This document shows positions 9,917 through 60,525 of a stretch of 60,525 bases of DNA, one piece after another (the stretch's first letter is position 1; the number at the start of each line of letters is the position of its first letter). Source of the stretch: an uncultured Gammaproteobacteria bacterium (GTDB taxonomy: Bacteria; Patescibacteriota; Patescibacteriia; UBA9934; GWF2-40-263); contig CAYMBX010000001.1 in NCBI GenBank assembly GCA_964388785.1, positions 1-60,525 of the forward strand. Reading direction: 5' to 3'. Both the position numbers and the translations under genes were made by a program. Below the pieces are notes generated by a model. The model was not told the origin of the DNA. It worked only from the letters and a program-made list of their open reading frames with translations, and did not search any database.

Positions 9917-9956
9917 TTGACAGCATCATTACTTCGTGTGTATACTTACACTAAGT
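9917..9956 (+). promoter_or_regulatory. nrtR promoter (TTGACA-N18-TATACT) with palindromic operator site A, ACTTCGTGT-N8-ACACTAAGT (9931..9956)
   Basis: The -10 box at 9941..9946 lies in the operator spacer. The ATG at 9957 is only 10 nt after the -10 box, so the mRNA is nearly leaderless. Confidence 0.6.
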
Positions 9957-10625
9957 ATGAAACACCACCCTTCTGCCCAAAATGTAAAAGTTGCTGTGGA
10001 CGCGATCATTTTTACCATCAAAAATGATGCACTTCATGTCCTTCTCATCCAAATGAAAAAAACGCCGTTTACAGGACAATGGGCAGTGCCCGGTGGTCTC
10101 ATTGAAGAAAAAGAAACGACGCATGAAGCCGCAACACGTATTTTGCATACCCAAACCGGCGTCAGAGATGTTTACCTGGAGCAGCTCATGACGTTTGACG
10201 ACGTCGAACGGGATCCGGCGGGACGCGTCTTGAGCGTCTCCTACTTCGCCCTTCTCCCAAATGCCGATGCCAAGATCAAAACGACGGAAAAATATTCCGA
10301 TGTCCGTTGGTGGCCGATCAAGAAACTGCCGACACTTGCCTACGATCACCAACCAATGATTCGTCTCGCACGTAAACGCCTTGAATCAAAAATTCAATAT
10401 ACCAACATCGTCTGGAGCTTGCTTCCACGCGAATTCACGCTCACACAACTTCAACGCGTGTACGAAATCATTCTCGATAAACCGCTCGACAAACGCAATT
10501 TTCGAAAACGCCTCTTGGCCCTGGATTTCATCAAACCCACCGGAAAAAAAGAACAAGGAAGTGCGTATCGACCGGCTGCCCTTTATCAATTCAAACAGCA
10601 CACACTTGAATACGTAGAGATTTAA
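9957..10625 (+). CDS. nrtR: NrtR-type regulator (Nudix-like ADP-ribose-sensing domain plus C-terminal winged helix)
   Basis: Degenerate Nudix box GQWAVPGGLIEEKETTHEAATRILHTQTGV (REL changed to RIL, EE lost). C-terminal FTLTQLQRVYEIILDKPLDKRNFRKRL wHTH. Sits directly upstream of NAD genes. Confidence 0.75.
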   Translation: MKHHPSAQNVKVAVDAIIFTIKNDALHVLLIQMKKTPFTGQWAVPGGLIEEKETTHEAATRILHTQTGVRDVYLEQLMTFDDVERDPAGRVLSVSYFALLPNADAKIKTTEKYSDVRWWPIKKLPTLAYDHQPMIRLARKRLESKIQYTNIVWSLLPREFTLTQLQRVYEIILDKPLDKRNFRKRLLALDFIKPTGKKEQGSAYRPAALYQFKQHTLEYVEI

Positions 10626-10651: not shown

Positions 10652-10686
10652 TTGACGTATCAGTTAGTGTGTAATATACACTATAT
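10652..10686 (+). promoter_or_regulatory. NAD-island promoter (TTGACG-N17-TATACA) with operator site B, AGTTAGTGT-N7-ACACTATAT (10662..10686)
   Basis: Same half-site and the same -10-in-spacer geometry as sites A and C. About 158-nt leader to the nadD-like ATG. Confidence 0.6.
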
Positions 10687-10844
10687 AAAATCTTACACAA
10701 TTCATTGACAGAACAACGATTTTCTTGTAACGTCTTCCCCTTTCCTGAATCAGTTAATTAGAAATTTGCGCTTGGACTTCTCGAGCATAAATTTCTCACC
10801 TTCAAAGAGTTGGAGGTGAACCGCACTTCAAAACCGAGGACGTC

Positions 10845-11450
10845 ATGAAAAAGGTGTTTGTGCTTGGCGGGAGTTTCAACCCGCCCGCTCTCCACCACGA
10901 AACAATCGTCCGTGAGCTCATCGCAGTGCTCGATTCGAAGGACGAGCTTCTGGTAATCCCCTGCGGCGATCGGCCGGACAAACGGACCACTGGTTCGGTT
11001 GCGCCGATGCATCGCGCCAACCTAGCACGTCTCGCCTTCGGCAAGTTCGATCGAGTCATGCTCGACTTAAGCGATCTCGACCACGACGAGTTCACCCGCA
11101 CCGCCGATCTCAACGATCGGCTTCGCGCGCAGTATCAAGATTATGAGATCATTCTGGTTGTTGGTCAGGATCTGATCGAAGGCGGGGCCACGGGAGCATC
11201 CGAAATCCATCGCGTTTGGCACAGAGACGAAGAGCTGTGGAACGACGCATCGTTCCTTGTGCTCACGCGCGGTGACAAAGTGCCGGATCGAGATGATCTT
11301 CCGCCACACAGCCACGTCCTACAGATCAGCGCGCCCGGCTCGAGCAGCGAGGTCCGATCACTTATTCGTGAAAACCGCGACGTTCGGTCGCTTATCAGCC
11401 CGAAAGTGCACGAATACATCGTGCATCACCGGCTTTACATGGAGAGATGA
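10845..11450 (+). CDS. nadD: Nicotinate/nicotinamide-mononucleotide adenylyltransferase
   Basis: GGSFNPPALHHETIV (GxFxPxHxxH) and C-terminal SAPGSSSEVRSLI (ISST-like). GAGGA Shine-Dalgarno. Confidence 0.8.
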   Translation: MKKVFVLGGSFNPPALHHETIVRELIAVLDSKDELLVIPCGDRPDKRTTGSVAPMHRANLARLAFGKFDRVMLDLSDLDHDEFTRTADLNDRLRAQYQDYEIILVVGQDLIEGGATGASEIHRVWHRDEELWNDASFLVLTRGDKVPDRDDLPPHSHVLQISAPGSSSEVRSLIRENRDVRSLISPKVHEYIVHHRLYMER

Positions 11451-12580
11451 TGGTTACGCGAGAAAGTCGATTTCAAGGTTCGCTCATGGGCGTACGCATC
11501 GGCGACGGCCTCGGTATGCCGTGGGAATCGCTCACCGCCGAGCAGATTCGCGAGCGCACCGATGGGAAGGGCGTGCATACGTACCACTCCCCACAGCAAC
11601 GCAGCGATGCGCCAGCATGGGCTCTGCAGCTCGGGATTCTCAACCCGGGTGACTCAACCGATGACTGGCAGCTCACGCGCGCGACGGCACAAAGTCTCAT
11701 TCGCTGTGGCCAGCTCGATCTCGCCGATCTGGCACGCACCTTCGTCGACGAACACGCGATCTGCCGTCTCGGTTGGGGCGGAACCACCGAGTGGGGCATC
11801 GCGCAGATCGAAGCGTGGTTCAAGACAAACGGAATCGAAGGACGTTCGCCCGGAGAGTTCCCTCCAAATCCGGAAAGCGAGAACGAACGTTTCGGCACCG
11901 GCAACGGAGTCGCGATGCGCATCGCGCCGATCGGCCTGCTGGCCAGCCACGCGTTTAGCGAAGATGGCCGGATCGATGAGGGTGCGCTGATCAGCTTCAT
12001 GGAGTCTGTCTGGGGAGTGGGAGGTCTCACACATCCAGACCCGCGGGCAACGGTCGGCGCATTCGCGATCGCGAGCTTCATTGCGCGACTCACTGCGCGC
12101 GAAGGCCGGCCGCTCGCACAGCACCATCTCCTCAAGATGTTCGACAGTGTGCTCTATGAGGTCACACGCATGGAGCGCGAGTTCGCGTCGACGATCGGCT
12201 GGACGAGAAATCGTGAGCCGTTCTCAGCGCGGATGAACTGGATTCGTCCGCTCATTCTGGCGAATGCGTCCGCAACGCAGATCCGCGTGAAGTTCGGAAC
12301 CTCGAGCTACACACTCGAGTCCGCTGCGTTCTCGATCGCGACCTTTCTGCGCCACCCCACGGACTTCCGCGCCGCCCTGCGGGAGGCCGTCGAGGCCGGC
12401 GGGGATACGGACACCAACGCCGCGATCGTAGGAAGTCTCGTGGGCGCGAACGTTGGACTCGAAGGAATCCCTGAGGAGTGGATGGGGCGCGGGGACTTCC
12501 TTGTGGCGGAGACGCTGGGATCCGATCTCTGGAACCTGGTCCTGGACATCCTCACGTCACCGTACTCCAACGCTTCTTGA
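11447..12580 (+). CDS. ADP-ribosylglycohydrolase family protein (DraG/ARH-like)
   Basis: N-terminal FQGSLMGVRIGDGLGMPWE and C-terminal GGDTDTNAAIVGSLVGA, which are typical ARH metal-site motifs. Start overlaps the nadD stop. Confidence 0.8.
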   Translation: MMVTRESRFQGSLMGVRIGDGLGMPWESLTAEQIRERTDGKGVHTYHSPQQRSDAPAWALQLGILNPGDSTDDWQLTRATAQSLIRCGQLDLADLARTFVDEHAICRLGWGGTTEWGIAQIEAWFKTNGIEGRSPGEFPPNPESENERFGTGNGVAMRIAPIGLLASHAFSEDGRIDEGALISFMESVWGVGGLTHPDPRATVGAFAIASFIARLTAREGRPLAQHHLLKMFDSVLYEVTRMEREFASTIGWTRNREPFSARMNWIRPLILANASATQIRVKFGTSSYTLESAAFSIATFLRHPTDFRAALREAVEAGGDTDTNAAIVGSLVGANVGLEGIPEEWMGRGDFLVAETLGSDLWNLVLDILTSPYSNAS

Positions 12581-12591
12581 TCTCCTTCTTC

Positions 12592-12640
12592 GCGGACCGG
12601 CTGTGCCTCGGTCGGTCCGCACACCCTTTTTCTTCTTTGT
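12592..12640 (+). terminator. Probable terminator hairpin (GCGGACCG...CGGTCCGC followed by a T-run)
   Basis: Read directly. The T-run is 6 nt after the stem, so this is weaker than the other terminators. Confidence 0.5.
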
Positions 12641-12663
12641 CATTTCGAACGAACCCCCTCTCC

Positions 12664-12742
12664 CTTGTCATCCTGAGGGAGCGCAGCGACCGAAGGATCT
12701 CAAAGTCTGTCGGGATCCTTCGCTGACGCTCAGGATGACAGG
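12664..12742. repeat. Long REP-like inverted repeat (CTTGTCATCCTGAG...CGAAGGATC / GATCCTTCG...CTCAGGATGACAGG)
   Basis: Nested arms at 12664-12677/12729-12742 and 12691-12699/12714-12722. Resembles the GTCATCCTGAG...GAAGGATC palindromic elements common in environmental genomes. Confidence 0.75.
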
Positions 12743-12826
12743 AAAGAAAGCACTCAAAGTGATCAAAAGTTCGCCTGAAATGACAGAGTGGAAACCCCAC
12801 TCTTCGCACCTTCCAAGGAGCAAACC

Positions 12827-14116
12827 ATGCGTCCACACGCAGAATTGATCGACGAAATCCTCGACGGCCCGGTCGTCGGCAACATGCTCGACGACGACTT
12901 CTACACCTACTCGATGGGTCAGGCAATCGTCTTGAACCGCCCGCAGGTCGAAGTCGACTTTCGTCTCACCAATCGTTCGCGAGGCGTCGTGCTCACCCAC
13001 GAGGTCAGTCCGGACGAGCTCGCACAAGAGCTCGACCGGCTCAAGGTTCGACGTTTCACTCGGACGGAACTGCACTATGTGCTCGGAACCAACGAGTACG
13101 GTGAGCGCATGTTCCGATCGGAGTACATCGACCACTTGCGCGAGCTTGCACTGCCCGATTTTCATCTGGGAGTTCGGGATGATGGCCAGTTCGATCTGCG
13201 CTTTCCGGGCGTTTGGTCTCGGGCCATGCACTGGGAAGTTCCGGCCCTCGCGGCGATCAACGGGCTGCGCATGCGCAATGCTCTGCGGCGGATGACACCC
13301 TTCCAGCGTGATGAGGTCATCGCGCGCGGTGTTGCACGGTTGGGCGAGAAAATCCGCGTCATCCGTGAACTTCCGGGTCTCACGTTCACGGACTTCGGAA
13401 CACGGCGCCGCTTCCATCGTGCCTGGCAGCGCTACATCGACAAGACGCTTGCGCAGGAACTCCCCGGACAATTCCTGGGAACCTCGAACGTCGAGGCAGC
13501 CATGGACTTCGGGCTTCTGCCCATGGGCACCAACGCCCACCAGATGTTCATGGTGATCGCCGCGCTCATGAGCGAAACGGATGAAAGTCTGCTGCGCTCA
13601 CACAACCAGGCCCTGCGCGAGTGGTGGCAGCTCTACGGATGGGGTCTCTCAATCGCGCTCACCGACACCTTCGGCACGGACTTCTTCTTCCGTGACTTCA
13701 CGCCCGAACAGGCGCGCGCATGGAAGGGTCTGCGCCAGGACTCCGGGGATCCGATCGTGTTCGGACACAAGGCACTCGACTACTACCATCGCCGTGGCAT
13801 CGATCCGAAAGAGAAGCTTCTCATCTTCTCGGACGGACTCGATCTCGACATGATCGTCCGGCTCTACAACGAGTTCAAGAACGAGATCAAGGTGAGCTTC
13901 GGATGGGGAACGTTGCTCACCAACGACCTCGGACTCTCACCGATCTCGATCGTCATCAAGGCCATGCGCGCAAGGCGTGATGCGGGAAGCGTGTGGATCG
14001 ACACCTGCAAGCTCTCCGACAACATCGCCAAGGCGATGGGTACACGTGAGACGATCGACCGTTACGCACGTGTGTTCGGCTACGACTCGCACTTCGAGGA
14101 GACACCGATCGTCTGA
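12827..14116 (+). CDS. pncB: Nicotinate phosphoribosyltransferase
   Basis: N-terminal MLDDDFYTYSMGQA (the LDTDxYKxTM pattern), about 430 aa. AAGGAG Shine-Dalgarno 6 nt before ATG 12827; the ORF-track GTG at 12788 was rejected. Confidence 0.85.
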   Translation: MRPHAELIDEILDGPVVGNMLDDDFYTYSMGQAIVLNRPQVEVDFRLTNRSRGVVLTHEVSPDELAQELDRLKVRRFTRTELHYVLGTNEYGERMFRSEYIDHLRELALPDFHLGVRDDGQFDLRFPGVWSRAMHWEVPALAAINGLRMRNALRRMTPFQRDEVIARGVARLGEKIRVIRELPGLTFTDFGTRRRFHRAWQRYIDKTLAQELPGQFLGTSNVEAAMDFGLLPMGTNAHQMFMVIAALMSETDESLLRSHNQALREWWQLYGWGLSIALTDTFGTDFFFRDFTPEQARAWKGLRQDSGDPIVFGHKALDYYHRRGIDPKEKLLIFSDGLDLDMIVRLYNEFKNEIKVSFGWGTLLTNDLGLSPISIVIKAMRARRDAGSVWIDTCKLSDNIAKAMGTRETIDRYARVFGYDSHFEETPIV

Positions 14117-14222
14117 TGCTCCTTTCCCTCCCTGACCAGCCTCACTGGTCGCTTTTCGCCAGCTGCTCACCATATGGTGGGACGCTGACGATTCGTATTG
14201 TTCTTCACAACGAGGTAACCCC

Positions 14223-16271
14223 ATGACCGTCAAGGTACAAACCGTTCGCGGACGTTCAACGTCGCATGGGTTCGCTCGCGTCGCCGCCGCCTCCTTTTGG
14301 ACGCGCCCGGCTGCGATTGAGCAGAATTTGCAGCGTCACCTCGAAGCCGCTCGCGAGGCGGACGCCGAGCGCGTTCAACTGCTCGTCTTCCCTGAACTCG
14401 GCCTCACCGGCTACGCTTGTCGCGATCTCTTCCGGGACGACCACCTGCGCGTGCGTGCGCTCGAAGCGCTTCGGACGTTCTGCGACGAAACCCAGGACAT
14501 GGGAACCGTGTTCGTAGTCGGTCTGCCGCTCGCACTCAACGGTCTGTACAACGTGGCAGCTGTCGTCATTCACGGAGAGGTGCTGGCACTCATCCCCAAA
14601 TCCTTCCTCGCGGCTCGCAGTGAGTGGCAGGAAGACGAATGGTTCGTGCCGGCGTCGCACCTGCAGACCGAGTCGGTCATCCTGCCCTGGCAGAAAGAAG
14701 CCGTTCCGATCGGAACGGACATTCTGATCGAGGTGATGGACGAGAACGATGAAGAGCAGGTGTTCGTTCTGGGTGTCGAAATCTGTGCGGACGGCTGGCA
14801 GGCCGGCTCGCCCGGTGATCGGCTGGCACTCAACGGCGCGACCGTCATCGCCAACCTCTCGGCATCCAACTGGGTGCTCGGGAAGGACAAATGGCGTGAG
14901 GTCGTCTTCCCGGCCAGCTCGGGTCAGCAGAAGGCCGTCTACATCTACTGCACGATGGCTGGCGACTCGACCGCGAGCGTCACTTGGGACGGCCACTGCT
15001 TCATCGCCGAGGACGGCAACATCCTCGCGCGTTCCAAGCGTTGGCTCACGCCCACGCAGAGCGACCTTAGCGTCGCAGACGTGGACATCGCGCGCCTTCT
15101 GCGCGATCGAATGGTCGACGGCGAGTGGGCACAGGCCGAACATCTCCACCAATCGCCGCACCGAAAGATCACCGCCTTCGTGCGCACCTGGCCCGCGGAC
15201 GTCAACGATTTCCGCCGCCCGCTCACGCGCATGCCGTTTGTCCCGAAGGACGCAGCGGTGATGCACGAGGTCGCAACCGAACTGTTCCAGGGTCTCGCCC
15301 AAGGACTGATCGGCCGACTCTGGACGATGAAAAATGGTCAGCCGATCGATACCTACCTTGGCCTCTCCGGCGGGTCGGACTCTACGCTCGTCTATCTCAT
15401 CGCGTGCTACGTCTACGATCGGCTCGGCTGGGACCGCAAGCACTTGCACGCGGTGCGCCTGCCCGGGCCCGCCTCGAGCACGCGCACACAGCGCAACTCA
15501 CGCCTGCTCGCGCAGGCGATGGGGACGAGTCTGCACACCGTCAACATCACGAAGCTCGCCACGCGCGCGCTGCGTGACGTGGGACACGAGCCGTGCTGGC
15601 AGTGCCTCCAGTGCGAGAACGCACAGGCACGCGCCCGCACGTTCGTGCTCATGACCTACGGATTCGTTCTGGGCACCGGCGACATGACCGAAAAGGTGCT
15701 TGGATGGGCCACCTATAACGGCGACCAGATGTCGATGTACGACGTCATCGCCGGAGTGCCCAAGACGCTCGTGCGCTACCTCATCGCCGCCTACGTCGAA
15801 CACATGACCAAGGACATGGTGGTGAGACGCACGCTTCGAAGCATCCTCGCCGAGGTGATCTCGCCCGAGCTCGTCAAAGTCAAGCCCGGCGAACCGATCC
15901 AGTCTTCCGAGGCGAAGATCGGTCCGTACGATCTCAACGACTTCTTCCTCTACCATGTGATCCGCACCGGCGCCACGCCCGCGCGGATCGCCTTCCTCGC
16001 ACAGATCGCGTTCTCGAGGAAGGAACGTGAGACGGACCTCATCTACAACCTGCCAACCATCCTCACGTGGTTGAAGAGCTTCTACAGCCGGTTCAACCCG
16101 GCCCAGTACAAGCGAAATGCCGGTGCGGATAGCGTGCTTATTGGATCGGTGGGAATCGGCCCACACGACAAGCTGCGTTTGCCCTCCGACGGCGATGTGT
16201 TGATCTATCTGCGTGAGGTTGAGGCCATGCTGACGGCTGTCAGCTCATGCACCGAGGCGGCTGCAGCGTAA
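14223..16271 (+). CDS. nadE: Glutamine-dependent NAD+ synthetase (CN-hydrolase domain plus NAD synthetase domain)
   Basis: N-terminal nitrilase-like LLVFPELGLTGY...EICAD. C-terminal LGLSGGSDST PP-loop. 682 aa. GAGGT Shine-Dalgarno. Confidence 0.9.
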   Translation: MTVKVQTVRGRSTSHGFARVAAASFWTRPAAIEQNLQRHLEAAREADAERVQLLVFPELGLTGYACRDLFRDDHLRVRALEALRTFCDETQDMGTVFVVGLPLALNGLYNVAAVVIHGEVLALIPKSFLAARSEWQEDEWFVPASHLQTESVILPWQKEAVPIGTDILIEVMDENDEEQVFVLGVEICADGWQAGSPGDRLALNGATVIANLSASNWVLGKDKWREVVFPASSGQQKAVYIYCTMAGDSTASVTWDGHCFIAEDGNILARSKRWLTPTQSDLSVADVDIARLLRDRMVDGEWAQAEHLHQSPHRKITAFVRTWPADVNDFRRPLTRMPFVPKDAAVMHEVATELFQGLAQGLIGRLWTMKNGQPIDTYLGLSGGSDSTLVYLIACYVYDRLGWDRKHLHAVRLPGPASSTRTQRNSRLLAQAMGTSLHTVNITKLATRALRDVGHEPCWQCLQCENAQARARTFVLMTYGFVLGTGDMTEKVLGWATYNGDQMSMYDVIAGVPKTLVRYLIAAYVEHMTKDMVVRRTLRSILAEVISPELVKVKPGEPIQSSEAKIGPYDLNDFFLYHVIRTGATPARIAFLAQIAFSRKERETDLIYNLPTILTWLKSFYSRFNPAQYKRNAGADSVLIGSVGIGPHDKLRLPSDGDVLIYLREVEAMLTAVSSCTEAAAA

Positions 16272-16347: not shown

Positions 16348-16380
16348 TTGACGAATTTCAAAAATTCGTGCATAATTCGT
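16348..16380 (+). promoter_or_regulatory. Internal promoter TTGACG-N17-CATAAT with inverted repeat ACGAATTT-ca-AAATTCGT (16351..16369) and a third AATTCGT at 16374
   Basis: Read directly, in a low-GC spacer between nadE and the Nudix pair. Confidence 0.55.
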
Positions 16381-16412
16381 CCTCGCGATTAACGTTGCGA
16401 GCAACTCGGAGA

Positions 16413-17210
16413 ATGGAAATGTCACATTCCATCATGATCAACGGGCGAACAGTGCCCGTGACCGGCCAATACGCACCGGAGGCGGTCGACAGCCCACTCC
16501 TCAAGGACTGGGCGACTTCGCTCGATCCCCGCATCGTCGTGAACAAGGTGAAGGTGCTCGCACTCGTCCTGTTTGGAAAGCTGCCAAAACTCCGCGTCGG
16601 GTTCATGATGATCGATGCGGAGATGACGCTCGATGGCAAGTCCATTCCCGGCGTGGCGTTCCTGCGCGGCGATGCGGTCGCCATCTTCGTCGAAGTCAAC
16701 TGCGAGGGTGAGCGCTACGCACTCATGACCGTTCAACCACGCGGGCCGGTCGGCGAACTACTCGTCGAAATCCCGGCCGGCATGATGGACGGCAGTGGTC
16801 ACTTCCTCGGCAAGGCCGCGGACGAGCTACGCGAAGAAACGGACATCGAGATCGACCCCGCGCAACTCATCGATCTGTGTGCGCTTGCGCAAGGGTCGCC
16901 GGCGCCGCGTGGCGTCTACACGTCCCCAGGCGGCAGCGACGAGGCCATTCACTACTACTGGTACCGCGTCGTCCTCAGCCGCGAGGAGCTCAAGGAACTC
17001 GAAGGCAAGGCTACCGGTCTGCTCGAGGAGGGCGAACAGATCACGCTCAAGGTCGTCCCCTTCGGCGAGCTCGCCCGATACCGCGACGGCAAGCTCATGA
17101 CCGCACTCGGTCTGCTCGCCGTCATGGAACTCGCGGAGACGTACAGGATCGTCGATCGCGCCGTTGTGAACGCAGATCTCAACAAGGCGGCAATCGAAGC
17201 CGCTGCCTAG
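16413..17210 (+). CDS. Nudix hydrolase, ADP-sugar/ADP-ribose pyrophosphatase-like
   Basis: PAGMMDGSGHFLGKAADELREETDIEI Nudix box and a long N-terminal dimerisation-type domain as in ADPRases. Start chosen at ATG 16413 after GGAGA. Confidence 0.7.
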   Translation: MEMSHSIMINGRTVPVTGQYAPEAVDSPLLKDWATSLDPRIVVNKVKVLALVLFGKLPKLRVGFMMIDAEMTLDGKSIPGVAFLRGDAVAIFVEVNCEGERYALMTVQPRGPVGELLVEIPAGMMDGSGHFLGKAADELREETDIEIDPAQLIDLCALAQGSPAPRGVYTSPGGSDEAIHYYWYRVVLSREELKELEGKATGLLEEGEQITLKVVPFGELARYRDGKLMTALGLLAVMELAETYRIVDRAVVNADLNKAAIEAAA

Positions 17211-17225
17211 TCCAAGGAGACAGAC

Positions 17226-17678
17226 GTGAGCCACTACCGAAATCCTACCCCCGTCGTGGTCGTCATCCAGCCTGTGCGCCGACTTGATGGGAGTTCGGGT
17301 GTCATCCTCGTCCGACGAACCATCGAACCCGCCAAGGGTGAGCTGGTTCTGCCAGGCGGCTACCAAGTGATCGAGGACTGGCGGGATGCCGGCGCACGCG
17401 AACTTTTGCAAGAGGCGAGCATCGAGGTCGATCCTTCGACACTCCGACGATTCGGCTACGAGTCGACGCCGGACAACAGCAAGATCATCCTGTTCTGCGT
17501 GGCACCCGAGCTCGACGAGCGAGATCTCCCCGCCTTCGAGCCGCTGCCCAACGAATCGGGTGTTGTCGAGACGAGCCAACGGGTCATCGGAACGCTCGAT
17601 GATCTGCACCTCATCCCCTGGTCGCTGCACCAGTTCGCGTTTGCACGATTCCTGCGCGGCGATCCGTTCCTCCCCTAA
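17226..17678 (+). CDS. Nudix hydrolase
   Basis: VLPGGYQVIEDWRDAGARELLQEASIEV Nudix box. GTG start with AAGGAG Shine-Dalgarno. Confidence 0.7.
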   Translation: MSHYRNPTPVVVVIQPVRRLDGSSGVILVRRTIEPAKGELVLPGGYQVIEDWRDAGARELLQEASIEVDPSTLRRFGYESTPDNSKIILFCVAPELDERDLPAFEPLPNESGVVETSQRVIGTLDDLHLIPWSLHQFAFARFLRGDPFLP

Positions 17679-19281: not shown

Positions 19282-19296
19282 GTTGGCCCGGAGGCA
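19282..19296. repeat. Partial family-2 REP copy (GTTGGCCCGGAGGCA)
   Basis: Identical to the 3' half of the 1393..1433 element. Confidence 0.5.
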
Positions 19297-19324
19297 GAGT
19301 GTCACCCTGGTGAAAGGAAAACCT

Positions 19325-20539
19325 ATGAACCCATCGGAGCGCATTGCGCGCAATCCGCGCCTGCTCTTTTGGGGACGGGCGCTCTATGAAACAAAAATGC
19401 TCAACGCCGTGATTGTGTTGTTTTATCTCCACCGCGGTCTTGGACTCGATCACGTCTTCTACATGAGTATTGTGTGGTCGCTCACCGCGCTGGTGGCGGA
19501 AATCCCGTCCGGGTATCTTGCCGATCGCATCGGCCGCAAGCGCACGCTCATCCTGGGCGTTCTTCTGCTCATCGCCTCTCACGTGGTTACGTTCTTTGCT
19601 GTTGGCCTCTGGCCGTTCATGGTCGTGTTTGTGCTTATGTCCGCTTCATATGCATGCTTCTCGGGAACAGAGGAAGCACTGCTTTATGAGAGCCTTGCGG
19701 AAACGAAAAACGAACACGACATGAATGACCGAAACGGCAAGCAACTCTCCGCACGTTCGCTTTCCGCGATTTTCCTACCTGCGATCGGCGCGTTAATCGC
19801 GCATGACTTGCTCGAATGGCAATTCCAACTTCTCATCGTGTTGAACCTAGTTGGGACGCTTGCGGCCCTCGTCATCTTGAACCGTCTTGAGGAACCGACG
19901 GCTCGGCAGAGTGTTGCCACCCGAGAAATCAGCATCTTCAGGCAAAGTCTTCGAACCATCAAAAATGATCCATGGCTCCTGAAAGTCACGCTCAACAAAT
20001 TGCTCGTGTTCATTGCCGCCTTCCTGACTTGGCGCATTTCACAGCCGTACTTGAACGCTCACGGATTCGGAGCCGAAGCATTGGGAATCTTCTACGTATC
20101 CTTCCAAATCCTCGAGTTTGCAGGTGGTTGGTTCGCGGGAAAAATCGAAAAACGAGTGGGAACTGCGAGCGTCCTGCTGGCAACCCCACTCGTCATGATC
20201 GGTTCGCTTCTCGTTTCTATCTTCACGACAAACGTCTGGATCATCTTTGCCGCTCTTGCGCTCGCGATCTCGGCAAACGCGTTTCGCGAACCGGTCTTCG
20301 CACACGCGGTCAATGCGCGCATTCACTCGGACAGCCGCGCCACCACTCTGTCCAATCTCAACGTTCTCAAGGGATTGCTCGATATCCCTGTTCTGTTTCT
20401 TGCAGGATACTTCGCACAGACAACGCTCACGTTTCCGCTCATTCTTGCAATCGCTCTGTGTGGAGTTTCCATCGTCTTGCTACCGATTCGTCAACAGGAA
20501 CTCGTAGCAACAAAAGAGAGTGTAGCCGCTACCCCTTAG
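19325..20539 (+). CDS. MFS transporter
   Basis: About 12 predicted hydrophobic helices and the loop 2-3 motif GYLADRIGRKRT. Start at ATG 19325 after AAAGGAAA. Confidence 0.8.
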   Translation: MNPSERIARNPRLLFWGRALYETKMLNAVIVLFYLHRGLGLDHVFYMSIVWSLTALVAEIPSGYLADRIGRKRTLILGVLLLIASHVVTFFAVGLWPFMVVFVLMSASYACFSGTEEALLYESLAETKNEHDMNDRNGKQLSARSLSAIFLPAIGALIAHDLLEWQFQLLIVLNLVGTLAALVILNRLEEPTARQSVATREISIFRQSLRTIKNDPWLLKVTLNKLLVFIAAFLTWRISQPYLNAHGFGAEALGIFYVSFQILEFAGGWFAGKIEKRVGTASVLLATPLVMIGSLLVSIFTTNVWIIFAALALAISANAFREPVFAHAVNARIHSDSRATTLSNLNVLKGLLDIPVLFLAGYFAQTTLTFPLILAIALCGVSIVLLPIRQQELVATKESVAATP

Positions 20540-36254: not shown

Positions 36255-36328
36255 GGTGACCCCACGGGGAGTCGAACCCCGCTTTACAGGATGAAAACCT
36301 GTCGTCCTAACCGATAGACGATGGGGCC
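36254..36328 (-). tRNA. tRNA-Glu (anticodon UUC), CCA encoded
   Basis: Reverse complement GGCCCCATCGTCTATCGGTTAGGACGACAGGTTTTCATCCTGTAAAGCGGGGTTCGACTCCCCGTGGGGTCACCA. Cloverleaf with anticodon loop TTTTCAT and T-arm GGGGTTCGACTCCCC. Confidence 0.9.
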
Positions 36329-38520: not shown

Positions 38521-38550
38521 TAAAAAGCAGGGTTCACGAGGGAACCCTGC
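38521..38550 (-). terminator. Rho-independent terminator of the PP2C-kinase operon
   Basis: GCAGGGTTC-loop-GAACCCTGC with a T-run on the minus strand. Confidence 0.8.
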
Positions 38551-38565: not shown

Positions 38566-38919
38566 CTACGCGCCGAAGCCCGACGCAGCGGTCTGACTGA
38601 AGCCGGCGCCGCCCTGGCTGGCGCGCACCGCCGACTGGGAGACGACGGCCATGGCCGCGCGGATCTCGCTGGGCGTGTTGCCCGGGGTCAGGACGAACTC
38701 GCGCGGGATCCCCATGGATTCCGCGACCTTGTGGAAGTCCGTGTGGCCGTCCTTGATCCCGATGAAGAAGACGAGGTGCGTCTCGCGACGCAGCATGTCC
38801 TCCACGATCGCCTTGACGCTCGCGGGCGTCTGGTGGCGGGAGTGCTCGTCCATCTTGGGGCGGTAACCCCAGATGCCGGCGTTCTTGGGATCGAAATGTT
38901 GAGGCATCGGAAGCTGCAT
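38566..38919 (-). CDS. Small hypothetical protein, third gene of the PP2C-kinase operon
   Basis: ATG 38919 with GAGAGGAA Shine-Dalgarno. 117 aa with a Gly/Ala/Ser/Gln-rich tail. The HLVFFIGIKDGHTDFHKVAESMGIP segment faintly recalls the last beta-alpha units of vWA domains, but there is no DxSxS MIDAS motif. Confidence 0.55.
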   Translation of the reverse strand: MQLPMPQHFDPKNAGIWGYRPKMDEHSRHQTPASVKAIVEDMLRRETHLVFFIGIKDGHTDFHKVAESMGIPREFVLTPGNTPSEIRAAMAVVSQSAVRASQGGAGFSQTAASGFGA

Positions 38920-39003: not shown

Positions 39004-40950
39004 TCAGGACATCTTCAGCAGGTGGATCTCATCTCTGCGGATCACGTAGATCCCCTCCTTCGCGTAGAACAGCCGCGAGGAGGCGTCGACAAAGGGCTCC
39101 GTGTCGGCGAAGTGGCGCGTCTGCACGATCCCGGTAGGCTCGGCATCCACGCATACAATCCCTTCATCCGTCGGCACGAACAGGACGTGTCGGATCCCGC
39201 CACCCTGCTTGGGCAGCGTCACGGCACATCCGCCGCGAATGTCACTCAGCCACGATCCGTCGCCGTCCGTAGCCTCATGGCTCGCGATCACTTTCCCGTC
39301 TGGTGCGAGCACCGTGCAACGGTTGATCAGGTTGCCGAGGTGCTGGCTCTTGGTGAAGAACCAAACTCCGTTAGACGAGAAGACGGCGTGCGCGTCCACC
39401 AGCTGCCCGGGGATGGGCGGCAGGTTGACACTATCGTTGAGCGACCGCTTTGCCTCGTTGAAGACGAACGCCTGGAAGAGCGCGCCGGCTCGGTAGAATC
39501 CGAATCCGAACGCCGGCCCCGTCCAGATGACCGTCTGTCCGCTCAGCACGTTACCGATCAGCTCGGTGGTGTCGATGCCGAAGTTACCTTCGCGCACGAG
39601 CTGTCCGCCCTGAAGACGAAACAGCGTCTTGGCGGTGGTGTCGAACATCGGCTTGTGACCGAACGTATCGACGTTCAACGCCTTGGGTGCCTCGCCTGGT
39701 TCGATCGCAACGAGCCGTCCGCCAAGCCCGATCAGGGTACGCGTTCCGCTGATGCGCAAACGCATCTCGGGGCGTGCAGGCTGTGTGAACACGACGGTCG
39801 CATCTTCGCGACGAATCTGTCCGCCCTCTTCGTAGAGGTAGACGAGCTTTCCGTCTTGCATCGCGACCTGCAGAATCCGACCGTGAGCACGCCCGTTGGG
39901 GAACAACCTAGTAGCTGTCACCTTTCCACGTACGGTCACATGCTGCGCGATCGCCGCCGCGGCCACACCGCACTGCGGACAAGTCCGCCGTGCGTGCTCG
40001 AAGCCGCAGTCATTGCACTTCGTCCATCGCAAGTTCTCAAGCAGACTCGCCTCGACCTCGCCGCGGCGATCCTTCTCGAACACGTCGAGGAAGAACTGAA
40101 GCAGTTCGTCGGGAAGTAGCTTGGGGCTGCGCGCCGGCTTGGGGTAGATGACGTCTGCGCCAAGCACGCTTGCCCGCCTGAGGCTTCGCGCATCATGCGC
40201 GATCCTTTGGCTGGCTTCTTTGGGCTTGTGCACTCCCCCGTACGGTCCGGTCCACAGCAGGCTCTCAAAGAGCATGACCAGGAACGCGAACCAATCGGAG
40301 TTGGTGGTGTGCGGTTTGATGAGCATCGGCTTGGTCGCCGCGGGATCGCACAGCATTGGGTCGACGAATCGCGCCGTGAACATCGGACTCAGGAAATTGC
40401 CGAACTGCATGGAGTCCGCGTCGACGAGCATCGGGATTGCCTCGGGCGTGCCAATCTTTTGGATAAGCACGTTGAGGTCGTTGAAATCCGCGATGATGAT
40501 CCCCGCCTTGTGGATCTGCGCGACCAGAGTGCGCAGACGCAGGAAGAAATGAACCAGATCCTTGGGCGCGATCTGCTTGCGCAGACCTTTGTCGTCGTGT
40601 AGAGCCATGAGCTCGCGTGCATCGACGATAAGGGGCATGGTGTAGCCGTAGATCGCTCCCTTCCTGTCGGTCGCAAGGTCCACAGGCGCGATCAGACCGC
40701 TCGGCAGGTCCTTTTTGGGGAACGCCGCCAGTTTTGTCTGATGCGTGGCGATGCGCTGTCGTGCCTCCCGTGCGAGCCGTTCACGATCCGGCCCCGGCGG
40801 AAGCGACACGATGTCGGGGTGGTCGGGCGTCTTGAACACCTTGAGTGCCTTATCGCCCAGCCGATAGACGTCGGCTTCACCACCTTTTCCGAGCACCATG
40901 GCCGGATCCAGACGAACTCGGTTTCCGGCGACGATCAATTCGGTAAGCAT
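39004..40950 (-). CDS. Ser/Thr protein kinase-like protein (648 aa) with central zinc ribbon and a large C-terminal domain
   Basis: VLGKGGEADVYRLGDKALKVFK (G-loop plus lysine), HKAGIIIADFNDLNVLI (catalytic loop), LVDADSMQF (DFG-like), CNDCGFEHARRTCPQCG. GGAGG Shine-Dalgarno. Start is 2 nt after the PP2C stop. Confidence 0.75.
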   Translation of the reverse strand: MLTELIVAGNRVRLDPAMVLGKGGEADVYRLGDKALKVFKTPDHPDIVSLPPGPDRERLAREARQRIATHQTKLAAFPKKDLPSGLIAPVDLATDRKGAIYGYTMPLIVDARELMALHDDKGLRKQIAPKDLVHFFLRLRTLVAQIHKAGIIIADFNDLNVLIQKIGTPEAIPMLVDADSMQFGNFLSPMFTARFVDPMLCDPAATKPMLIKPHTTNSDWFAFLVMLFESLLWTGPYGGVHKPKEASQRIAHDARSLRRASVLGADVIYPKPARSPKLLPDELLQFFLDVFEKDRRGEVEASLLENLRWTKCNDCGFEHARRTCPQCGVAAAAIAQHVTVRGKVTATRLFPNGRAHGRILQVAMQDGKLVYLYEEGGQIRREDATVVFTQPARPEMRLRISGTRTLIGLGGRLVAIEPGEAPKALNVDTFGHKPMFDTTAKTLFRLQGGQLVREGNFGIDTTELIGNVLSGQTVIWTGPAFGFGFYRAGALFQAFVFNEAKRSLNDSVNLPPIPGQLVDAHAVFSSNGVWFFTKSQHLGNLINRCTVLAPDGKVIASHEATDGDGSWLSDIRGGCAVTLPKQGGGIRHVLFVPTDEGIVCVDAEPTGIVQTRHFADTEPFVDASSRLFYAKEGIYVIRRDEIHLLKMS

Positions 40951-40952
40951 GG

Positions 40953-41801
40953 TTACTGCCTCCGTCCCACGATCAGCGTCGTGTCGTCCTTGAGATGACC
41001 TGCTTCGGTGACCAACCGTCGTGCGTCCCAATCCGGCAACACGGAGGTGAGGTTCGCCAAAGCCAAGCGTCTGCGGATGTTATCCGTGTTTCTAAAGAAC
41101 CGCTCTTCCTCCCAGAACTGGGACAGCGGGCCGACGAGCTGATCTTTGCCGGGCAGGCGCAGCTGGCTTGCGCGCACGAAGTGGCGCAAACCGTCTGTCC
41201 CGACCAGGAAATGATCCAGTCGTTCGGTGCTGACGACTTGGAGGATCTCGAACTTGAGCGACTCCGGCTTCACATCCGCAAGCGACGTGTCCACCAGCGC
41301 GTACGCCAGATACACCGGCGCGTTTCCTGCTTCCGGTTCGATCCAGAACTCCTCGCCGTTGATGATGATGAGACCGTCTCCGCGGGAGAAGAACACGCAG
41401 AACTCTTCGGTCAGAATCGCGCCGACGAGTGTGAATAGGAAGTGCTCGTTGATCGTGGACGAATAGGATCCACCCATCGAGAGCGCAAGTGTGCGCATCT
41501 GTGCAAGCACATCCTGTCGGGCACGCTCCAGGATCTTCATGAACTGCATCCTGGGTGCATCGTCCGTCTTCTGCCAACGCTTGAGCTGGAACGCGAGTGC
41601 ACTCTGCAACAAGCGCACGCCGATTTTGGCGCCGACTTCGCTGTGTGCACCGGAACCGCACCCGTCCGCCACGAGGCAGATCTGTGTGGAACCGAACACT
41701 GATTCGCTGGACGTGATTCCATAGGCGTCATGTCCATTGGATTCTTTGAGCGCCTGACGATGATCGGTTCCAACAACGGAACCGGCAGCCAATTCGAACA
41801 T
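40953..41801 (-). CDS. PP2C-family protein phosphatase (PP2C_2-like)
   Basis: LVADGCGSGAHSEVGAKIG and FLVGTDGL motifs. ATG 41801 with GGAGG Shine-Dalgarno; the longer ORF-track start at 41912 lies in the low-GC leader and was rejected. Confidence 0.7.
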   Translation of the reverse strand: MFELAAGSVVGTDHRQALKESNGHDAYGITSSESVFGSTQICLVADGCGSGAHSEVGAKIGVRLLQSALAFQLKRWQKTDDAPRMQFMKILERARQDVLAQMRTLALSMGGSYSSTINEHFLFTLVGAILTEEFCVFFSRGDGLIIINGEEFWIEPEAGNAPVYLAYALVDTSLADVKPESLKFEILQVVSTERLDHFLVGTDGLRHFVRASQLRLPGKDQLVGPLSQFWEEERFFRNTDNIRRRLALANLTSVLPDWDARRLVTEAGHLKDDTTLIVGRRQ

Positions 41802-41968
41802 GTCGTCGACCTCCAATGAGATCTCAATAAATGTCTCGGTTGTAGGGAACGGTCGAGGGAGTGTTCCACTCGTTTTTAACCCCGAATCTTGGGTCAAAAA
41901 CCAACGGAACAAGACCGCGAACCTTACGCGTTTTTTAGAATTTTGTCAATCTTCATCCCTCGCTATTT

Positions 41969-42006
41969 ACTTAGTGTAATATATACACATAGTAAAATCT
42001 TGTCAA
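41969..42006 (-). promoter_or_regulatory. PP2C-kinase operon promoter (minus strand TTGACA 42006-42001, N17, TATATT 41983-41978) with operator site C, ACTTAGTGT-N7-ACACATAGT (41969..41993)
   Basis: Same half-sites and -10-in-spacer layout as sites A and B at nrtR and the NAD island. Confidence 0.6.
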
Positions 42007-42012
42007 CCAATC

Positions 42013-42039
42013 AAAAAAGGCCGTTTGTTCGGCCTTTTT
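42013..42039. terminator. Bidirectional terminator after ribH
   Basis: AAAAAGGCCG-tttgtt-CGGCCTTTTT. Confidence 0.8.
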
Positions 42040-42042
42040 CTT

Positions 42043-42441
42043 TTAGAAAAGCATTTTCGCGACCGCTGCAACCGCAGCACGAGCGTGCGGTTCCAAGCGC
42101 GGTGGAATCTGAGATGGCAATATTTCCGGACCAAGAATACCAAGCCCGATCGGCTTCATAAACTCAAGTTGGAGTTGAATGATCGCGCTTACAACCGCCT
42201 GCCCCATCACAAACCCATGTTTGGTTTCTCCGCGTTCGATGATGCCGAGCGTTGCGACTCCATCAATATCCTCACGCATGAGTAGTCTCTTGATCGCAAG
42301 CGGTTTTTCAATTGAGCCGGGAACCCATACTTCTTCCGCGATTTCTAAATTGTGCTTTGCGGCTTCGTCGCGTGCCGCCGCGAGCATAAGCTCAGCTTCT
42401 TTTTTGTGGAAGGATCCAAGAACGATCGCAAGGCGTTTCAT
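42043..42441 (-). CDS. ribH: 6,7-dimethyl-8-ribityllumazine synthase (short form)
   Basis: LGIIERGETKHGFVMGQAV (the G.IrGeT.H pattern) and VPGSIEKP. Sits next to ribE. Confidence 0.7.
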   Translation of the reverse strand: MKRLAIVLGSFHKKEAELMLAAARDEAAKHNLEIAEEVWVPGSIEKPLAIKRLLMREDIDGVATLGIIERGETKHGFVMGQAVVSAIIQLQLEFMKPIGLGILGPEILPSQIPPRLEPHARAAVAAVAKMLF

Positions 42442-42458: not shown

Positions 42459-43073
42459 TTATTTTGCATTTTTTAAAACCTGCTCGACGGTCTCCACGAT
42501 CGCTTGTGTCATCGCGTCAATTTCCACATTCACCTGATCTCCCACTCCCTTTTCTCCAAACGTGGTGAGTCTCAGTGTCTCCGGAATAAACCACACCTGA
42601 AACGTGCCCTTTTCTTTGTCTGCATCCACCACGGTCAAACTCGCTCCATCGAGCCCGATAAATCCTTTGGAAAAAATATACTTCATCCAGATGGGATCAA
42701 CTTTAAACGTAACGGCTTTGTTATTCTCCGGCATCTTAACCGTGACAATCTCCGCTATTGTTGAAACATGTCCGCTCATGACATGCCCGCCGATTTCGTC
42801 CCCCATCCGTGCAGAGCGTTCGATATTCACCAACATTCCTTCCGACAATTTGCCGAGCGTTGTTTTGCGTAGCGTCTCTTCCATCACATCGAAACCGATT
42901 TCGTTTCCGTTCAATCGAGCCGCCGTTAGACAGACGCCATTAACCGCAATACTCGCTCCGAGTGCGACTCCTTGAGCAAGCTCGGGAGAAAGCGAGACGT
43001 CAAAGCGCCGAAGACCAGATTGATCTTCCAGCCGCACGACGGGAAATTTTCCCTGTACGATTCCTGTAAACAT
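42459..43073 (-). CDS. ribE: Riboflavin synthase alpha chain
   Basis: MFTGIVQG N-terminus and an internal repeat with GHVMSGHV. 204 aa. Confidence 0.9.
   Translation of the reverse strand: MFTGIVQGKFPVVRLEDQSGLRRFDVSLSPELAQGVALGASIAVNGVCLTAARLNGNEIGFDVMEETLRKTTLGKLSEGMLVNIERSARMGDEIGGHVMSGHVSTIAEIVTVKMPENNKAVTFKVDPIWMKYIFSKGFIGLDGASLTVVDADKEKGTFQVWFIPETLRLTTFGEKGVGDQVNVEIDAMTQAIVETVEQVLKNAK

Positions 43074-59355: not shown

Positions 59356-60525
<1,170 letters not shown>

Follow-up and report, generated by a model that had tools for sequence, protein, structure and literature searches.

An NrtR-type operator probably controls a PP2C phosphatase/kinase operon in a Patescibacteria genome and accompanies the same gene module at related loci in several phyla

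Introduction

ADP-ribose is a product of NAD consumption, and the regulons so far described for the regulator NrtR serve NAD synthesis, NAD salvage, pentose use, and ADP-ribose recycling. Most NrtR motifs have the symmetry of a 21-bp palindrome with a GT-N7-AC core, and ADP-ribose suppresses NrtR DNA binding in vitro, which makes it the published anti-repressor (Rodionov et al. 2008, PMC2330246). The regulon members listed in that study are genes of NAD synthesis and salvage, prs, niaP, pnuC, genes of pentose use, and draG, together with nrtX-nrtY, two uncharacterized targets in Streptomyces, Frankia, Proteus, and Hahella (PMC2330246). Our literature search found no follow-up on nrtX/nrtY.

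TerY-P triads have been presented as switches that act in metal stress or against phages, and to our knowledge no input signal has been reported for them. According to the part of PMC11090510 that draws on Anantharaman et al. (2012), a triad consists of a vWA protein (TerY), a PP2C phosphatase, and a Ser/Thr kinase with a C-terminal zinc ribbon, and the same part of that source cites Gao et al. (2020) for TerY-P-like modules as anti-phage systems. A further group, the ADP-ribosylglycohydrolase (ARG)-centered systems, combines a Nudix-HTH or WYL regulator with phosphatases and with vWA or other chaperones (Iyer et al. 2022, PMC9503650, section 3.8).

Here we analyzed a stretch of DNA of 60,525 nucleotides, referred to as the window, in which an earlier note had described three copies of one operator, the third of them (site C) on the promoter of a PP2C-phosphatase/Ser-Thr-kinase operon. 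The closest kinase and NrtR relatives of the window belong to Candidatus Uhrbacteria (Patescibacteria); Patescibacteria have reduced genomes and depend on salvage. The window ends with a partial 16S rRNA gene (59356..60525) that is cut by the contig end, and it contains one tRNA gene (36257..36328).

Results

Site C, at 41969..41993, reads ACTTAGTGT-aatatat-ACACATAGT around a GTGT-N7-ACAC core. The letters at these positions, ACTTAGTGTaatatatACACATAGT, are those reported in the earlier note, and written as a 21-bp palindrome they give TTAGTGT-aatatat-ACACATA, with the symmetry and the GT-N7-AC core published for NrtR motifs (PMC2330246). A search of the window for the pattern ACTTAGTGT-N7-ACACTAAGT with up to 3 mismatches returned only site C (2 mismatches) and site B (10662..10686, 3 mismatches), where 0.01 matches were expected by chance from shuffles. 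In addition, a 25-nt weight matrix was built from 126 sites of other genomes, the window being left out. Its scores are biased towards the GTGT-N7-ACAC core because the training sites were picked for the exact core, and read in that light they were 27.6 bits for site B and 26.9 for site C in the 60.5-kb window, against 6.5 for the next best position and top scores of 2.4 to 17.5 in 20 shuffled windows. The dozens of equally good matches of which the earlier note had warned were thus absent from the 60.5 kb scanned; further operators, or a second NrtR paralog, may lie elsewhere in the genome.

The operator overlaps a promoter, P1, on the minus strand, whose -35 hexamer TTGACA (42001..42006) and -10 hexamer TATATT (41978..41983) are separated by a 17-nt gap, with the -10 hexamer inside the operator spacer. 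This arrangement, already described in the earlier note, was borne out by a consensus promoter scan of 41750..42100, in which P1 agreed with 11 of 12 consensus positions and was the sole promoter-like site. Site C is placed directly past the terminator of ribH (42043..42441), which lies upstream on the minus strand with ribE (42459..43073). As had also been observed, similarity between sites B and C extends past the palindrome: next to each right half-site, in the same register, stands the identical 9-mer TAAAATCTT (10686..10694 and 41993..42001), on opposite sides relative to the two promoters. That this 9-mer marks a longer operator is not supported: it is absent from the matrix flanks and is not kept at L090, the locus of the closest NrtR relative with available sequence.

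The same window encodes an NrtR-family regulator. The nrtR gene (9957..10625, plus strand) combines a Nudix domain with the NrtR winged helix (PF21906, 9.8e-27; PF00293, 5e-16). Catalytic Nudix enzymes carry REUXEE in the Nudix box; the window NrtR has RILHTQ in its place and is therefore probably a sensor, not a hydrolase. Site B, a canonical NrtR operator, lies between nrtR and an NMNAT-like gene, and its equivalent in L090, where NrtR is 77% identical, scored 28.5 bits. Site A (9931..9956) is an operator variant on the nrtR promoter, with two very good half-sites and an 8-nt spacer; it scored -17.6 as found and 26.3 after removal of one spacer base. The promoter there consists of TTGACA (9917..9922), an 18-nt spacer, and TATACT (9941..9946), and given the ATG at 9957, 10 nt past the -10 hexamer, the nrtR mRNA is probably leaderless. 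An assembly error as the source of the 8-nt spacer was ruled out, since the corresponding site in L090 (L090 2000..2021) is spaced alike, and site A counts as a conserved variant of the operator rather than an identical third copy. Thus, the description of site C as the third copy of the same operator stands for C and B, which are of the same type, but not for A, whose spacer is 8 nt and not 7.

Behind site B lies an NAD island (10845..16271, plus strand) with, by Pfam, an NMNAT-like gene, an ADP-ribosylglycohydrolase gene (11447..12580), a NAPRTase gene (pncB), and a glutamine-dependent NAD synthetase gene (nadE). Two more Nudix-domain genes (16368..17678, plus strand) and an MFS transporter gene (19283..20539) come after nadE. 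In relatives, the NrtR NAD islands (L085/L086 12564..14181; L088 5211..8147) have SLOG/LSDAT_prok-domain genes and a nucleoside 2-deoxyribosyltransferase-like gene within or adjoining them. The locus therefore resembles described NrtR regulons in its Nudix plus winged-helix regulator, in a 21-bp palindrome that overlaps promoters, and in the predicted control of the regulator's own gene together with pncB, nadD/M, and nadE (PMC2330246). It differs in that the target at site C is a phosphatase/kinase/vWA module, which is absent from the listed members (PMC2330246), and in that its motif, TTAGTGT-N7-ACACTAA, varies unusually little between phyla.

To place site C among related genomes, more than 1,100 kinase homologs were found, and 80 loci were taken from species-representative genomes, to which several metagenomic contigs were added; the upstream counts rest on 67 kinase loci from several phyla with enough upstream sequence. 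The closest syntenic loci, L001 and L005 (Ca. Uhrbacteria BH28), have the order ribE-ribH-PP2C-kinase, with kinases 62 to 63% identical to that of the window. In both, TTGACA is followed by TTAGGTGTaagtcttACACTA or TTAAGTGTgagtctaACACTA at the spacing seen in the window, so that the -35 hexamer and the palindrome align column for column, as the earlier note would have expected of a conserved site; site C also aligns with the operator of L088. L001 and L005 each have a second GTGT-N7-ACAC site immediately after the first.

The motif was strongly concentrated upstream of the module. Across all loci, the exact core GTGT-N7-ACAC occurred 128 times in 1.45 Mb, with the consensus TTAGTGT-N7-ACACTAA. 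Within 350 nt upstream of PP2C, at least one site was present in 48 of 67 loci and at least two in 34 of 67, and the density of exact cores was 3.54/kb upstream of PP2C (83 sites in 23.5 kb) versus 0.027/kb elsewhere (32 in 1.18 Mb), an approximately 130-fold difference. Co-occurrence of the motif with PP2C/kinase operons in related genomes, one of the checks proposed in the earlier note, was thereby confirmed. The remaining core sites were mostly before nrtR, pncB, or nadE, including nrtR's own promoters. Furthermore, 38 of 67 loci have an nrtR homolog that ends at most 1.5 kb upstream of PP2C, reading in the same direction as PP2C in Patescibacteria and divergently in cyanobacteria. Together with the match to the published core, this neighborhood argues that the operator belongs to NrtR, as had been suggested. 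The motif is found at the nrtR promoter (in the window as site A, with its 8-nt spacer), at NAD genes, and upstream of orthologous targets.

Gene order carries the same association. In L088, it runs nrtR - TTGACA/operator - PP2C - kinase - X - Y - pncA - NAD-kinase-like - GNAT - ADP-ribosylglycohydrolase, where X and Y are the third and fourth genes of the module, and in L094 (kinase 64% identical) it runs nrtR - PP2C - kinase - X - Y - ARG - pncB - prs. Among the 29 loci without adjacent nrtR, 18 still have the operator, as does the window. Eight nrtR-adjacent loci have no PP2C-proximal site, and in five of these (L006, L011, L019, L038, and L050) the site is on the nrtR promoter instead. In most of the genomes sampled, the module directly adjoins nrtR, and it often stands between nrtR and the NAD-salvage genes. 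These observations support the PP2C-kinase module as a conserved genomic partner of nrtR and NAD-salvage genes, an association that appears from gene neighborhoods to be general. In the clade of the window, L001, and L005, we infer that the module, which lies behind ribE-ribH and away from nrtR, has retained the operator. Between Y and pncA, L088 has about five tandem copies of the 16-nt unit CCCAACCTCTCACGTT (~15975..16060).

The module was also present on 12 IMG/VR contigs that lack nrtR (L096..L107, 42 to 545 kb, classed as viral), which carry PP2C-kinase-X-Y and may represent either jumbo phages or CPR contigs that were misclassified. Operator-like sites above 15 bits were found in only 2 of the 12 (L101 and L102), both downstream of the kinase gene and not before PP2C. 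Some of these modules adjoin pncB, nadE, or NMNAT homologs.

The position of the operator was not uniform. In many Patescibacteria (L007, L020, L021, L037, L045, L053, and L094), it lies in the nrtR-PP2C gap about 180 to 280 nt before the PP2C start and 30 to 90 nt upstream of a TTGACAAA-type promoter, while cyanobacteria have two operators 23 to 50 nt ahead of that start. Phyla thus differ in regulatory geometry, and since so many operators in Patescibacteria stand upstream of a TTGACA promoter, simple occlusion is not the general rule.

The operon behind P1 has three ORFs on the minus strand, whose coordinates in the earlier note were correct. The first (40953..41801, 282 aa), with a GGAGG ribosome-binding site before its ATG at 41801, encodes a PP2C-family phosphatase (PF13672 PP2C_2, 9e-16). 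The second (39004..40950, 648 aa) encodes a Ser/Thr-kinase-like protein with a kinase domain, a CxxC..CxxC zinc ribbon, and an all-beta C-terminal domain. The kinase, X, and Y had no Pfam match at standard thresholds, and sequence-profile searches of the PDB gave RIO2 at 0.007 and nicotinamidases at ~0.06, suggestive at most, and no match with Y; structure prediction and fold search were therefore used for the kinase and Y. In the AlphaFold model of the kinase (pLDDT 90.9), the N-terminal part adopts a eukaryote-like protein-kinase fold (Foldseek hits: ULK1 and CaMKII, E ~4e-8). Residues invariant over 46 homologs, including those of the glycine loop (G21/G23/G24), K37, D155, N160, and D177/D179, are all present in the window, and the zinc-ribbon cysteines C312, C315, C324, and C327 are invariant. 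In addition, the kinase family profile aligned, over both the kinase domain and the zinc ribbon, with the kinase from a Rhizobium plasmid operon of the order VWA-PP2C-kinase (hhalign probability 98.7%, E 3.6e-16). The earlier labels of the two genes thus hold, the phosphatase as PP2C_2 and the kinase as a protein-kinase fold homologous to TerY-P kinases.

The third ORF of the window is a remnant, and the two genes from which it derives are best seen in relatives. There, X is a protein of ~367 aa with an Isochorismatase match in 18 of 40 members and invariant Asp, Lys, and Cys residues, which are candidates for a catalytic triad. We considered X as a mere stand-in for the nicotinamidase PncA and rejected this, since L088 has both X and a canonical isochorismatase-family gene. 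Y is a protein of ~265 aa with a conserved MIDAS motif, DDSGS...T...DG, and its model (pLDDT 88.6) has a vWA fold (Foldseek: CMG2, TEM8, and integrin I-domains, E ~1e-6); its profile matched a plasmid TerY-type vWA weakly (E 0.027). The module conserved across phyla is therefore one of four genes: PP2C, a zinc-ribbon kinase with a beta-rich C-terminal domain, the isochorismatase-like X, and the vWA protein Y. Its proteins are 41 to 49% identical across phyla, which by this measure is unusually conserved for a defense system.

Compared with the TerY-P triad, the module has the same three components: a PP2C gene stands in the operon, the kinase has the C-terminal zinc ribbon by fold, invariant cysteines, and hhalign, and a MIDAS-bearing vWA gene is present in relatives, with 93 aa of Y left in the window. 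The plasmid operon to which the kinase profile aligned is itself a classical triad by the definition given in the relevant part of PMC11090510. However, the kinase is only ~25% identical to its plasmid relatives, the plasmid collection holding only distant ones, and it carries a large beta-rich domain at its C terminus; the genes run in the order PP2C-kinase-X-Y, in which the isochorismatase-like X is an addition; the genetic linkage is to nrtR and NAD salvage and not to Ter, restriction, or CoCoNuT genes; and the proteins are strongly conserved across phyla. PADLOC models did not recognize the module as TerY-P, the kinase matching only PD-T4-6 (6e-5) and PP2C, X, and Y having no match at E ≤0.01. 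On sequence and predicted structure, the module is distantly related to the TerY-P triad and adds to it a putative isochorismatase-like cysteine hydrolase.

ARG-centered systems, the nearest published description that our search turned up, share with this locus a Nudix-HTH negative regulator tied to the operon, here an NrtR-like repressor predicted to sense ADP-ribose, and an operon with a phosphatase and a vWA protein (PMC9503650). An ADP-ribosylglycohydrolase gene is also near the module, in the NAD island of the window and, in several cyanobacteria (L062, L068, L069, L075, L077, L082, and L084), between PP2C and the kinase as a gene 25 to 28% identical to ADP-ribosylglycohydrolase. In contrast, ARG-centered systems are defined by the ARG gene, have phosphatases of the rhodanese, calcineurin, HD, or HAD type, are described as fast-evolving, and are nowhere mentioned with PP2C or a protein kinase (PMC9503650), whereas ARG is not the core of the operon described here, being missing from the PP2C operon of the window and beside the module in some loci only, and the module is highly conserved.

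Discussion

We consider it likely, from the sequence comparisons above, that site C is a genuine operator through which NrtR, encoded 31 kb away, represses P1 of the PP2C/kinase/remnant operon. P1 is of the sigma-70 type and close to consensus; site C spans both its -10 box and its predicted transcription start, and an NrtR dimer bound there would block RNA polymerase. ADP-ribose would then free the operator of NrtR, so that, at times of NAD consumption, the operon would be induced jointly with the genes for NAD salvage and ADP-ribose recycling that follow site B; we extrapolate this response from the NrtR proteins of Synechocystis and Shewanella. The kinase/PP2C pair may in turn toggle phosphorylation of the vWA protein and/or X, which would couple a phospho-switch to NAD/ADP-ribose status. 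By analogy with the proposal made for TerY-P, this toggling is the likeliest role of the pair, and it is the weakest step of the proposal.

The state of the operon in this genome raises the question of whether its regulation still matters. The remnant ORF (38566..38919, minus strand, 117 aa) is an in-frame fusion whose first ~26 aa are the N terminus of X and whose last 93 aa are the C terminus of Y, joining X residues 4 to 26 to Y residues 168 to 260. Compared with L001, L005, L094, and L092, ~1.6 kb is missing, comprising most of X (the hydrolase) and the MIDAS half of Y. We infer that an in-frame deletion in this genome fused and gutted genes three and four and left only the phosphatase and kinase intact, and NrtR may thus act on a decaying operon in the window. 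The 5' leader (41802..41970, minus strand, ~170 nt) is altered as well: a ~110-nt segment (~41860..41960) absent from L001/L005 is inserted just after site C and splits the second operator known from these loci. The insert contains a long hairpin (~41910..41862; folding z-score -2.46, unique in the window), and no RNA family was found for the leader in Rfam at gathering thresholds on the whole window or in a permissive scan of 41700..42100. From the fusion and the split operator, it could be argued that the operator is real but a relic, left by a recent loss in a module decaying since the X-Y deletion, with no physiological consequence. We regard this as unlikely, because PP2C and the kinase are full length, the kinase retains every invariant residue, site C and P1 remain near consensus, and the fused ORF stays in frame with its own ribosome-binding site and a terminator-like hairpin and T-run, identified by sequence reading, that closes the operon (38523..38550, minus strand).

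Another reading accepts NrtR binding at site C but holds that its main effect is not to block P1: NrtR may instead act as an activator or anti-activator upstream of a second promoter, by looping with other sites, or as a roadblock to read-through from ribE-ribH. The second promoter-like site, P2 (41921..41949, minus strand), consists of TTGACA (41949..41944), a 17-nt gap, and TAAGGT (41926..41921), lies outside the operator and within the insert, and has counterparts of the form TTGACAAA...TAGGAT/TAAGGT in the PP2C promoters of L094 and L021. Such promoters 30 to 90 nt downstream of the operator, in the window as in the seven Patescibacteria loci listed above, a like two-promoter layout at site B and in L090, and the position of site C directly past the ribH terminator would all suit this reading. 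It is nevertheless less probable still, since P1 is close to consensus while P2, with its -10 hexamer TAAGGT, did not pass the consensus promoter scan (41750..42100), since in cyanobacterial loci, among others, paired operators close in front of PP2C have classic repressor geometry, and since characterized NrtR proteins are all repressors as far as PMC2330246 and the relevant part of PMC6800001 describe them. Under repression of P1, P2 may provide NrtR-independent basal expression; an active P2 would place NrtR bound at site C near -68 relative to that promoter, from where it could not shut off the operon completely. That the palindrome is bound by another regulator, or is a chance or structural palindrome, is highly improbable: the different spacing of site A on nrtR's own promoter could be cited in its favor, but chance matches are all but unexpected, the motif is enriched upstream of PP2C and co-occurs with nrtR, on nrtR promoters, and before NAD genes with the published NrtR core, and the nrtR-free IMG/VR contigs have no such site before PP2C.

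What is new here is the proposed NrtR control of a PP2C/kinase module; NrtR regulons and TerY-P-like triads are both of known kinds. Our literature search found no paper linking NrtR with PP2C or TerY-P, although an earlier mention in Anantharaman 2012 or de Souza & Aravind 2012 is possible, and found none that treats NrtR and Patescibacteria together. The cluster is prominent in Patescibacteria and is also present in cultured cyanobacteria, among them Pseudanabaena minima Chao 2107, Nodosilinea nodulosa PCC 7104, and Synechococcus sp. PCC 7502.

More tentatively, the module might be an ADP-ribose-induced partner of NrtR across phyla, serving either as a post-translational control layer on NAD salvage or as a response to phages or toxins that attack the NAD pool. 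If the former is true, the kinase/phosphatase pair would switch a vWA protein and a nicotinamidase-like enzyme according to NAD/ADP-ribose status. If the latter is true, NAD depletion or ADP-ribose would be the trigger, and a TerY-P-type switch would be wired to a metabolite-sensing repressor. In sum, the coupling of NrtR with this module suggests ADP-ribose/NAD status as a candidate input for one branch of TerY-P-type phospho-switches, and it would also add a signaling layer to NAD homeostasis.
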